From contig CAWBQK010000011.1 of NCBI GenBank assembly GCA_963791045.1, forward strand, positions 352,635 through 416,634: a stretch of 64,000 bases of DNA, read 5' to 3'. The translations under genes were made by a program, and so were the position numbers. The notes beneath the pieces are model-generated. The model saw only the letters and a list, made by a program, of their open reading frames with translations, had not been told where the DNA came from and searched no databases. The DNA comes from Candidatus Latescibacterota bacterium. GTDB lineage: Bacteria > Krumholzibacteriota > Krumholzibacteriia > WVZY01. This document shows positions 33,360 through 62,160 of the stretch, piece after piece; position 1 is the stretch's first letter, and each line of letters begins with the position of its first letter.

Positions 33360-33465
33360 GCGACCGAAGGTGTGGTGGATGTGGGCTTCGACGAGAGTCC
33401 GACAAGCGTCATCGAGAAGATGCGGCGCCGGCAGAACCTCGTGCCGGGACTTCATCGACCACACC
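33281..33465. repeat. Degenerate palindromic repeat element(s), copy 3
   Basis: cggtctttcg..ggcctttcgcggga matches an arm of copy 1; ggtgtggt (33369) / accacacc (33458) inverted ends. Confidence 0.55.
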
Positions 33466-33497
33466 ATAAACAAAGCAATAACTTCGAAAGGAAACGT

Positions 33498-34052
33498 ATG
33501 TCGGTTAAACCTGATAAATGGATTGCTCGGATGGCGAAAGAACATGGAATGATCGAACCGTTCGCGGACAAACAAGTCAAAGACACAAAAGTATCGTACG
33601 GGCTTTCGTCATACGGTTACGACATACGAATCTCCGACGAGTTCAAGATTTTCACGAACATAAATACGACTGTCGTCGATCCAAAGGAGTTCGATCCGAA
33701 GGCTTTTGTGGACTTCAAAGGCGACGCCTGTATCATCCCCCCGAACTCCTTCGCACTCGGCCGCAGCGTCGAATATTTCCGGATTCCGCGAAATGTCATC
33801 ACGATTTGTCTCGGAAAATCGACTTATGCGCGATGCGGCATTATTACCAACGTGACCCCCTTCGAGCCCGAATGGGAGGGGTACGTAACCATGGAAATAT
33901 CCAATACGACGCCCCTGCCGGCCCGCGTTTACGCCAACGAGGGAATCGCGCAAGTCCTTTTCTTTGAAAGCGATGAGGAGTGCGAGGTGTCCTACGCGGA
34001 CCGAAAAGGCAAGTACCAGGTCCAGCAGGGGATCACCCTCCCGAAAGTCTGA
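33498..34052 (+). CDS. dcd: dCTP deaminase
   Basis: [38 protein letters not shown]. Confidence 0.96.
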
Positions 34053-34132: not shown

Positions 34133-34162
34133 TTGACAAGTTTTTGGGGATTGGTGTATGGC
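34133..34162 (+). promoter_or_regulatory. Sigma-70-type promoter of the histone gene
   Basis: TTGACA-18-TATGGC, followed downstream by RBS AAGGAGG. Confidence 0.45.
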
Positions 34163-34213
34163 AATAGAGAATTCAGTGAACTCTGTATTGTTTCATTTCA
34201 AGGAGGGACCCCT

Positions 34214-34402
34214 ATGGTGAAGAAGAAAGCTGCCGCCGAACTGATCATTTCGAAAGCCAGGACCAAAGCCGCTTCGAAAAAATGTAACGTGTCGGGCGAG
34301 TTCTACGGTGCGCTGGACAAAAAAGTCCGCGAAATGATCAAGCACGCCGAAGGCCGCGCAGTCGGTAACAAGAGGAAGACGCTCAAAGCCGTCGATCTCT
34401 AA
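34214..34402 (+). CDS. Bacterial histone-fold protein (Bd0055-like singlet)
   Basis: 62 aa, basic; LIISKARTK...NVSGEFYGALDKKVREMIKHAEGRAVGNKRKTLKAVDL with the RKT-x4-D histone signature. Confidence 0.85.
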   Translation: MVKKKAAAELIISKARTKAASKKCNVSGEFYGALDKKVREMIKHAEGRAVGNKRKTLKAVDL

Positions 34403-34446
34403 ACCGAACGAATTTCCAACTCAACAACAATTGCTGAGTTGATATG

Positions 34447-34483
34447 AAAATGGCCCGATCCTCCAGCAGGATCGGGCCTTTTC
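34447..34483. terminator. Bidirectional intrinsic terminator
   Basis: aaaatggcccgatcct-ccagc-aggatcgggcctttt between convergent genes. Confidence 0.8.
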
Positions 34484-34505: not shown

Positions 34506-35159
34506 TCAATACTCCACGATTATTTCTATTTCACCCAACGCTTCAATTGCCGCCACAACACGCTGGTGTTTCTTTTCGGGCGCGACGTATTCGATCTCGA
34601 CGTTGACGTTTTCCGGACCGCTTGATATCGAAATGTCATCGATATGAATTCCAACATGGCTGAACAATCGTTTGACTTGCTGCATACGGTGCGACACATA
34701 CGGGTATCGAAGGACAACGATATGCCGTCGTTGTTTTTGCCCAAGTATGTGTTGAAGTCGCCCCAGAATATTCAATGTGAGGAGAACGAGAATCGTTCCC
34801 GAAAGCGCAAGAATGTATTCGCCCCAACCGATCGTCAATCCAACCGCGGCGACAAACCAAATCGTCGCCGCACTCGTCAGCCCGGTCACCGTGAGTCTGG
34901 CTTTGAGTATGGCGCCCGCCCCAAGGAAGCCGATTCCGGTCATGATCTGGGCCGCGATGCGCGTGGGGTCGGCCGACTGGTTTCCGCTTTGCGAGATTTC
35001 TATCGAGAGGATCATCAGGAGACAGGATCCCATGCACATCAGCATGTTCGTTCGCATCCCCGCGGGTTTCCCCTCGATCTCACGTTGCATCCCGAGTAGA
35101 CCGCCCACGATCAACGCTATGACCATTCTAAGCAAGTATTCCAGATAGACTGTTTCCAT
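34506..35159 (-). CDS. MgtC/SapB family membrane protein
   Basis: KPAGMRTN, DPTRIAAQIMTGIGFLGAG, GLTSAATIW. Confidence 0.92.
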   Translation of the reverse strand: METVYLEYLLRMVIALIVGGLLGMQREIEGKPAGMRTNMLMCMGSCLLMILSIEISQSGNQSADPTRIAAQIMTGIGFLGAGAILKARLTVTGLTSAATIWFVAAVGLTIGWGEYILALSGTILVLLTLNILGRLQHILGQKQRRHIVVLRYPYVSHRMQQVKRLFSHVGIHIDDISISSGPENVNVEIEYVAPEKKHQRVVAAIEALGEIEIIVEY

Positions 35160-35308
35160 GACTTCGATATTCCGCCCCCGAGGGGGCTCTGTCAAGCACT
35201 TGTCACGTCGGAGATTCCCCCGGTGGGGGGTGTTCTCGCCTTGCAAATTGGCCGTGTGAGTGATAGATTACTACAACTCATCCGCACGATTCACAGGGAG
35301 AAATCACG

Positions 35309-36766
35309 TTGGAAAAGATAGTCGGCACAGGTGTTACGTTTGATGACGTTTTGCTGATCCCCGGGAAATCCGAGGTTCATCCCAGCGAAGTCTGCACAAA
35401 GACCCAGCTCACCAAGACGATAGAACTGAACATTCCAATCGTATCGGCGGCGATGGATACGGTGACGGAAGCCGAACTGGCCGTGGCGCTTGCCAGGGCG
35501 GGCGGGATAGGCATCGTTCACAAGAACATGGCCCCGGATATCCAGGCGAGTCATGTCGACCGGGTCAAACGGAGCGAAAGCGTAATCATTTCGAACCCGA
35601 TCACACTCAACCCGGACGAGACGGTGGGCGACGCCCATGCCGTCATGAGGAAATACCAGATTTCCGGCGTGCCCATCACCGACGACGGTGTTCTGGTGGG
35701 GATACTGACCAGTCGTGATCTGCGATTTGTCACGGATGAAGATATCCCCGTACGCGAGGTCATGACATCTGAGGACCTGGTGACGGTGCGAGAGGGCGTC
35801 TCGATGGATGAGGCGAAAAAGATGCTCCACGAGCATCGTATCGAGAAGCTCCCCGTGGTGGATGCCGGTATGCGGGTCAAGGGTCTCATCACTTTTAAAG
35901 ATATCAAGAAAAGTACCGATTTCCCCAACGCGTGCAAGGACTCCGACGGGCGTTTGCGGGTTGGGGCGGCTACGGGTGTCGGAAAAGACGCGATCAAACG
36001 GGTCGACCTGTTGATCGACGCCAATGTCGATGTCGTGGTAATCGATACCGCCCACGGCCATTCCAAAAACGTCCTCGACACGCTTGCCACGATCAAAGAG
36101 CGGCATCCGAAGCTTCAGGTCATCGTCGGCAATATTGCGACGGCAAAGGCCGCGGAGGATCTTATAAAGGCCGGCGCCGACGGGATCAAGATCGGAATGG
36201 GGCCGGGCGCTATCTGTACGACTCGGATCGTTGCCGGTGTTGGAATTCCACAGATCACGGCGATCATGGAATGCGCAAAGGTTGCCGCGAAGGTGGGTAT
36301 ACCGATTATTGCCGATGGCGGTGTCAAGTACAGTGGGGATATTGTGAAAGCCATGGCGGCGGGATCGGACTCAGTAATGATCGGGAGCCTGTTCGCGGGG
36401 ACCGAAGAGAGCCCCGGTCAGATAGAACTCCTGGAAGGACGCGCGTTCAAGATTTATCGGGGAATGGGATCGATCGAGGCGATGCGCTCCGGATCCGGTG
36501 ACCGGTATATGCAGGAAGGCGTCGATGAATCCAAACTTGTCGCCGAAGGCATCGTCGGACGGGTGCCTTACAAGGGAAAACTTGGCGATTCGGTGTACCA
36601 ACTGGTTGGTGGGTTGAGATCGGGGATGGGATATTGTGGGGTCGGTACGATTGCCGATCTGAAAAAGAAGACCAAATTTATTCAGGTTACCGCGGCAGGC
36701 TTGAGAGAAAGCCACCCGCACGATGTAATGATAACAAAAGAAGCTCCGAATTATCGTCTGAGTTAG
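35309..36766 (+). CDS. guaB: IMP dehydrogenase
   Basis: [18 protein letters not shown] pair, [15 protein letters not shown]. Confidence 0.98.
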
Positions 36767-62083: not shown

Positions 62084-62160
62084 TGGTGGCGGTGCAGGGA
62101 CTCGAACCCCGGACACGCGGATTATGATTCCGCTGCTCTAACCAACTGAGCTACACCGCC
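62084..62160 (-). tRNA. tRNA-Met (CAT), elongator type
   Basis: GGCGGTGTAGCTCAGTTGGTTAGAGCAGCGGAATCATAATCCGCGTGTCCGGGGTTCGAGTCCCTGCACCGCCACCA. Confidence 0.95.

Follow-up and report, generated by a model that had tools for sequence, protein, structure and literature searches.

The window analysed here, a 64-kb (64,000 nt) stretch of DNA from a Candidatus Latescibacterota bacterium, contains a short histone gene lying between dcd and a convergent gene of the MgtC family (Table 1). The upstream order is a thioredoxin-reductase-like gene, folE and dcd; downstream, the minus strand mgtC-family gene is followed by guaB and an alpha/beta hydrolase gene. The original prediction, which was made from the sequence alone, had set the gene amongst the core genes dcd and guaB, and both are indeed present; however, it had overlooked the MgtC-family gene that intervenes before guaB. 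The sole Rfam match within the window is a tRNA gene (62087-62160, minus strand).

The histone CDS begins at an ATG (34214) inside a longer, mechanically called open reading frame (34133..34402), and encodes a protein starting MVKKK and ending AVDL; its homologues, which are 59-73 aa long, share this start site. The protein contains 13 Lys and 4 Arg residues against 2 Asp and 4 Glu, giving a pI of 10.25, and its C terminus, R54-K55-T56-L-K-A-V-D61-L, carries the RKT-x4-D signature. Hence the basic 62-aa product with this motif that had been described is borne out by the coding sequence.

Table 1. Positions in the window of the histone gene, its putative transcription signals and its neighbours
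Feature	Position	Strand	Basis or remark
dcd	33372-34052		upstream of the histone gene
-35 hexamer TTGACA (perfect)	34133..34138	+	invariant in the window and 14 related loci
Putative -10 hexamer TATGGC, 18-nt spacer	34157..34162	+	conservation in 15 upstream regions
5' leader of ~45-50 nt, including the ribosome-binding site	34163..34213	+	putative transcription start
Ribosome-binding site AAGGAGG, 7 nt before the ATG	34200..34206	+	sequence
Predicted FtF-type alpha3-truncated histone CDS, 62 aa	34214..34402 (including stop)	+	ORF, homologues, fold, tetramer model
Intrinsic terminator, hairpin and T tract	34452..34483	both	scan on both strands, folding energy
MgtC-family gene	34506-35246	-	convergent, between the histone gene and guaB
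guaB	35309-36766		downstream of the histone gene

Histone loci were confirmed at 178 positions in species genomes, 80 of which were fetched for a comparison of their surroundings. The distance from the -35 hexamer TTGACA to the ATG is 79-89 nt in the window, in the 13 loci at which the histone gene is linked to dcd or guaB and in one further locus (L062); the hexamer is absent from this interval in the other loci, ten of which have a TTGACA at -104 to -195. At the -10 position, 17-18 nt downstream of the -35, the 15 aligned upstream regions have an invariant TA within a conserved TAtT/TAAT. A scan with an E. coli-type consensus did not call the histone promoter, because the putative -10 lacks the final T; TATGGC is a weak match by that consensus. 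Of the 80 related loci, 79 have an SD-like motif ahead of the start codon. Beyond the stop codon, the terminator consists of an 11-bp stem with eight GC pairs (34452-34478) followed by TTTTCG, with a folding energy of -27.6 kcal/mol (z -5.8; none of 200 shuffled sequences folded as well), and is common to the histone gene and the convergent mgtC-family gene. A GC-rich inverted repeat, judged by eye, was found 3' of the stop codon in all 12 of the syntenic loci shown. As the promoter, SD motif and terminator repeat are retained across loci, the comparison supports a monocistronic gene with its own promoter, strong ribosome-binding site and terminator, which is what had been proposed, and the coordinates of the finding, 34133..34483, follow from the extent between promoter and terminator. 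Between the -10 and the SD motif, the leader contains the partly conserved blocks ATTCxG and TTTC(A/T) in many of the 15 aligned loci; these blocks in a leader of ~50 nt could represent a regulatory RNA or a protein binding site.

In 13 of the 80 related loci, all of which come from named species genomes, dcd and/or guaB adjoin the histone gene, and these 13 are labelled Candidatus Latescibacterota, Krumholzibacteriia or plain 'bacterium'. An MgtC-family gene is present in only three of them (L007, L010 and L022), with guaB lying directly after the histone gene in the rest; this suggests that the MgtC-family gene was inserted into a dcd-histone-guaB order already in place. Different neighbours recur elsewhere among the 80 loci: a convergent DUF6178 (PF19676) open reading frame follows the histone gene in 33 loci of the Myxococcota type (e.g. 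L050:4282-6675, minus strand), NUDIX-containing open reading frames are neighbours in 14 loci, and S15 peptidase open reading frames in 12. None of these three adjoins the histone gene of the window. A Sir2-family (PF02146) open reading frame is found on the same strand upstream of the histone match, which lies at ~4001, in eight of the 80 loci, mostly labelled Myxococcota (L012, L013, L017, L033, L051, L057, L058 and L066), a frequency in keeping with a gene order confined to one clade.

Homologues in uncultured bacteria

A search of a 5.8-billion-protein set returned 1639 candidates, 1638 of which were homologues of the histone at E<=1e-3; the best 120 of these 1638 have 76-94% identity to it and are for the most part 60-73 aa in length, and 119 representatives of clusters formed at 50% identity match the query. 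Eighteen close relatives have 35 invariant columns. Some representatives of ~117-124 aa (P0156, P0162, P0178, P0182, P0185, P0189 and others) match the query in two stretches and, on this sequence pattern, are doublet (pseudodimeric) relatives of the singlet histone family.

Relatives with 71-93% identity were found in MAGs labelled Latescibacterota, Krumholzibacteriia, Eisenbacteria/Eiseniibacteriota, NC10/Methylomirabilales, Planctomycetota and Myxococcota/'Deltaproteobacteria', the last of these being the commonest label. Within the phylum to which the window belongs, a match at E<=1e-5 was obtained in 138 of the 208 species genomes; the histone is present in 86 of the 125 high-quality genomes and in 52 of 81 genera of the phylum, and in 11 of 12 within the family. 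Several genomes of the phylum have two or three matches (G001-G004, G006, G020-G028 and G204-G206, amongst others), often one near-identical copy (E ~1e-27) and a divergent second (E 1e-12 to 1e-15).

The genome from which the window is taken (G000; 3.66 Mb in 21 contigs, 80.9% complete with 5.8% contamination) has a single histone copy. Outside the window, at ~32900-44800 of contig C5, core genes for ribosomal proteins, rpoC and fusA appear to be broken into several open reading frames (at least eight rpoC-like pieces, three fusA-like and three rplB-like). Such fragmentation points to an assembly rich in indels, a possible reason for the estimated completeness of 80.9%; the histone gene is intact.

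A tree of the histones (81 rows by 58 columns) was poorly resolved, with only two of 77 branches starred. The dcd-linked rows are separated from the DUF6178-linked, Myxococcota-type rows by one branch with an SH-aLRT of 83. Slow vertical evolution could produce such a tree, which indicates nothing firm on transfer between phyla.

Fold and family placement

The AlphaFold2 model of the protein (mean pLDDT 82.3) has helices at residues 14-20 and 28-51 and a one-turn helix at 59-61. Alpha3-truncated prokaryotic histones are described in the available text of PMC11390915 as having alpha3 cut to three or four residues and a shortened alpha2; the modelled alpha2 comprises 24 residues (28-51) and alpha3 only residues 59-61, and on this model the gene product is an alpha3-truncated histone in the sense of Schwab et al. 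By contrast, nucleosomal histones have an alpha3 of ~10 residues and an alpha2 that is four to five residues longer, according to the same text (PMC11390915).

When the model was compared with solved structures using Foldseek, ranks 1-8 and 10 were all HTkC, HLp or HBb (TM 0.71-0.84, probability 1.00, rmsd 1.7-2.3 A); eukaryotic H4 and NF-Y came next, with TM scores of 0.4-0.55. None of the Foldseek matches reached E<=0.001, the best being 3.4e-3, as is to be expected of a chain of only 62 residues. This comparison had been named as a check in the original prediction, and the histone fold of a stand-alone gene is confirmed by it together with the homologues and the AlphaFold2 model. Searching solved structures with the single sequence (phmmer) gave E-values of 9.5e-4 for HTkC (9F2C) and 0.085 for HLp (9QT0). 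A family profile built from 37 relatives, down to 38% identity, matched HTkC 9F2C at 1.3e-16, HLp 9QT0 at 8e-14, HBb 8CMP at 8.6e-12, HmvA at 2.4e-6, HMfA at 0.0039 and HMfB at 0.13; the gap between the FtF structures and HBb is a small one, of two to five orders of magnitude. The resemblance to Bd0055 and HMf that had been suggested therefore stands as histone kinship but probably not as the closest relationship: by these E-values the nearest solved proteins are the FtF histones HTkC and HLp, with HBb (Bd0055) next and HMfA marginal.

Annotation by family models does not reveal any of this. Scans of the protein against Pfam and NCBIfam returned no families from either at E<=10, in keeping with the earlier expectation that such a gene is easily missed; a profile search of the genome with PF00808 did not find the gene, and one with PF09123 gave no matches at E<=10. 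Among the 37 relatives, DUF1931 matches 17 at E<=1 (best 7.4e-4), CBFD_NFYB_HMF (PF00808) 16 (best 4.7e-4) and the 'Histone' family five, the best E-values across the three families being 4e-4 to 7e-4. Assignment to the DUF1931 doublets was rejected, as the protein is a 62-aa singlet and PF09123, a doublet model of 138 positions, matches nothing in the genome; the 'DUF1931 domain-containing' label borne by some homologues is a naming habit. The archaeal nucleosomal class (PF00808) was likewise rejected, since there is no match at the gathering score and alpha3 is a single turn, even though HMfA and HMfB have the histone fold and the RxTxxxxD signature of L2/alpha3 in common with the protein.

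Predicted assembly of the histone

In FtF histones, contact between dimers is described as depending on R48 and N52 of the sequence logo, with RxTxxxxD at 54/56/61, and the 'bacterial dimers' such as HBb are described as being without both R48 and N52 (PMC11390915, in the text available). HLp is reported to form tetramers through R49, S52 and N53 with R55, T61 and F63 (PMC12701072, available text). At the aligned positions, the protein encoded in the window has R48, G51, N52, R54, V60, D61 and L62; all 37 relatives carry T56 and D61, and conservation reaches at least 90% at R48, N52, R54 and K55. In the profile alignment, HBb has Ser and Asp at the positions of R48 and N52. The Lys that follows R54, making RKT, is described in PMC11390915 as characteristic of the bacterial-dimer and nucleosomal classes, not of the FtF logo; however, it does not discriminate between the classes, as HTkC also carries RKT.

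A model of four copies of the chain combines a classic handshake dimer with a second interface at residues 47-48, 51-52, 54, 58 and 60-61. Its median ipSAE was 0.88, while the highest of three controls scored 0.00, relative to a calibration mark that was reached by 20 of 30 solved one-chain pairs and one of 23 solved single chains, and that was set on two copies rather than four; at least 97% of the contacts were common to the runs, and the pLDDT of the partner chains was at least 87. The tetramer modelling that had been named as a check thus predicts a confident dimer-dimer contact through the FtF residues. The result may owe something to the solved tetramers of HTkC (9F2C) and HLp (9QT0) already known to the modelling method, and speaks for likeness rather than binding. 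Cys24 (codon 34283-34285), in a K-C-N-V stretch at the border of alpha1 and L1, is invariant in the 18 close relatives and variable among the distant ones; its contacts in the four-copy model are E46 and L57 on the partner chain rather than a second cysteine.

The closest characterised bacterial counterpart in architecture is HLp of Leptospira perolatii (PDB 9QT0-9QT2), described in the available text of PMC12701072 as a ~63-aa singlet in which, as in the window protein, alpha2 is short and alpha3 a single turn. The two share ~30% identity, with a TM of 0.76-0.84 and an rmsd of 1.7 A between HLp and the model; an S-K motif opens alpha1 in both, HLp R49, N53 and R55 correspond to R48, N52 and R54, the RD clamp R55-D62 corresponds to R54-D61, and the positions at which HLp forms its tetramer are those of the interface predicted here. 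The DNA contacts of HLp, listed in PMC12701072 (available text) as A13/S14/K15, K17, K21, T27, G29 and T56/T57, map to I12/S13/K14, R16, A20, V26, G28 and K55/T56; most, though not all, are kept, K21 being replaced by A20 and T27 by V26. HLp differs in having RTT in place of RKT, in its genomic neighbours (SMC, MAP and DUF350 in Leptospira, against dcd, mgtC and guaB) and in its nucleoid context, Leptospira being described there as without HU (PMC12701072, text available), whereas three HU/IHF genes are found in the genome of the window. HTkC of Thermococcus kodakarensis, an archaeal FtF histone (PDB 9F2C; PMC11390915, available text), is the best match in both sequence and fold, ranking first in Foldseek; it has the RKT motif, an Arg at the R48 position and the truncated alpha3, but is archaeal, ~32% identical and has a Glu at the N52 position.

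We consider it probable that the gene encodes an FtF-class bacterial histone whose homotetramers bind DNA with no sequence preference and wrap it, working beside HU/IHF. In this minimal histone fold of 62 residues, alpha2 would be 24 residues long, alpha1 short and alpha3 a single turn. Chains would pair head-to-tail as the usual histone dimer, and contacts made by L2, alpha3 and the C-terminal part of alpha2 (R48, G51, N52, R54, V60 and D61) would hold two such dimers together in a closed, ring-shaped homotetramer. This would bind DNA without sequence specificity through S13-K14 at the 'paired ends of helices', R16, K18, K22 and K23 of alpha1, the L1/L2 beta-bridge (G28, K55 and T56) and a short N-terminal tail rich in Lys, with probably ~60 bp wrapped per tetramer, as shown for HLp. 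Transcribed as a monocistronic message from a promoter conserved in the lineage, the histone would act as a nucleoid-associated protein beside HU/IHF. The gene and its conservation, the conserved transcription signals and interface residues, the fold and the family placement were shown by computation; a tetramer in solution, the binding and wrapping of DNA, and abundance of the protein are suggested by analogy with HLp, HTkC and the L. interrogans homologue of HLp, which is abundant and essential (PMC10627809).

As the main alternative, the protein might be a dimer of the kind formed by HBb (Bd0055) of Bdellovibrio bacteriovorus (PDB 8CMP, 8FVX and 9EZZ; PMC10627809, PMC11317129), which is itself an alpha3-truncated bacterial singlet and is described as strictly dimeric and DNA-bending (PMC12701072, available text); on such a reading, to which the original prediction came closest by naming Bd0055, it would remain dimeric and bend DNA, or coat it end-on, with no wrapping by a tetramer. 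HBb shares RKT-x4-D, including the Lys at K55, and the S-K motif, gives a TM of 0.73-0.77 in the fold comparison (0.75-0.77 for the model matches cited in favour of a dimer) and a profile match of 8.6e-12, and coexists with HU in Bdellovibrio (PMC12701072, available text), as the window protein would do in its own genome. However, it is only 22-24% identical, is outscored by HTkC and HLp in the profile comparison and outranked by them in the fold search, and belongs to a class described in the accessible portion of PMC11390915 as having neither R48 nor N52, both of which are at least 90% conserved here and form part of the confident dimer-dimer interface of the four-copy model. An HBb-like dimer is accordingly rather unlikely.

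It is very unlikely that the histone fold serves a role outside chromatin, as a specific transcription factor or a protein scaffold of the kind proposed for some DUF1931 or divergent folds. Schwab et al. caution that histone-fold proteins need not all organise genomes (PMC11390915, available text), some homologues are labelled 'DUF1931 domain-containing', and HU/IHF is available as a conventional nucleoid protein; against this, the protein is a 62-aa singlet with a pI of 10.25 to which PF09123 gives no match, its canonical sites of DNA contact (S13-K14, R16, G28 and K55-T56) and the R54-D61 clamp are retained, and its near-invariance across phylum labels resembles that of structural chromatin proteins. 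Nor does any partner gene accompany it across lineages, the neighbours differing between the dcd-linked and DUF6178-linked groups. A chance intergenic open reading frame or annotation artefact, which the mere 62 codons and lack of a Pfam or NCBIfam match might suggest, is refuted by the 1638 homologues, the 35 columns invariant in 18 close relatives and the presence of the gene throughout the phylum, as well as by the conserved synteny, promoter, SD motif and terminator and the confident fold.

Nucleoid context and wider occurrence

The abundance that the original prediction had suggested for this chromatin protein is tempered by genome content and by codon usage. With three HU/IHF genes in the genome, the FtF-type histone is not necessarily the chief protein of the nucleoid. 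Its codon adaptation is 0.766, compared with a median of 0.733 for ribosomal protein genes and a background of 0.705, a weakly raised value that 16% of random 62-codon windows equal, and one that is not significant in a genome whose codon bias is weak.

Bacterial FtF histones are already in print from Spirochaetota, Planctomycetota, Bdellovibrionota and Myxococcota (PMC11390915 and PMC12701072, available text). None of the papers listed by a literature search reported histones in Latescibacterota or Krumholzibacteriota; neither name is present in the main text of Schwab 2024 or in those of its supplements that were covered, and in the covered supplements of Hocher 2023 these phylum names occur only in the list of genomes searched. 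The gene in the window is hence an uncharacterised member of a known but rarely studied family, and probably of FtF/HLp-like rather than Bd0055/HMf-like type. Amongst bacterial histones, only HBb and HLp have been characterised both structurally and functionally, and neither comes from the lineages found here.

The picture drawn by the 2024-2025 papers is extended by these data, and not changed. An FtF histone can be a near-core gene of an uncultured phylum that retains HU/IHF, whereas Leptospira, the sole FtF model system, lacks HU. A more speculative and somewhat doubtful extension is that the near-invariant FtF clade constitutes a major lineage-wide chromatin protein, working with HU in whole uncultured phyla; if this were true, histone-based chromatin would be markedly commoner in bacteria than the published estimate of 1.86%. 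That estimate rests partly on Pfam models, which at the gathering score do not detect the clade. As annotation with Pfam and NCBIfam misses it, surveys relying solely on Pfam cut-offs may undercount bacterial histones. The protein, being tiny, intact and easy to synthesise, would offer a convenient test across bacteria of the rule by which R48 and N52 distinguish tetramers from dimers.

All of the histone relatives found come from uncultured genomes. In a search of sequencing runs, the stretch was detected in no RNA run and in only eight DNA or unclassified runs, with a small share of 0.05-0.14 in each.
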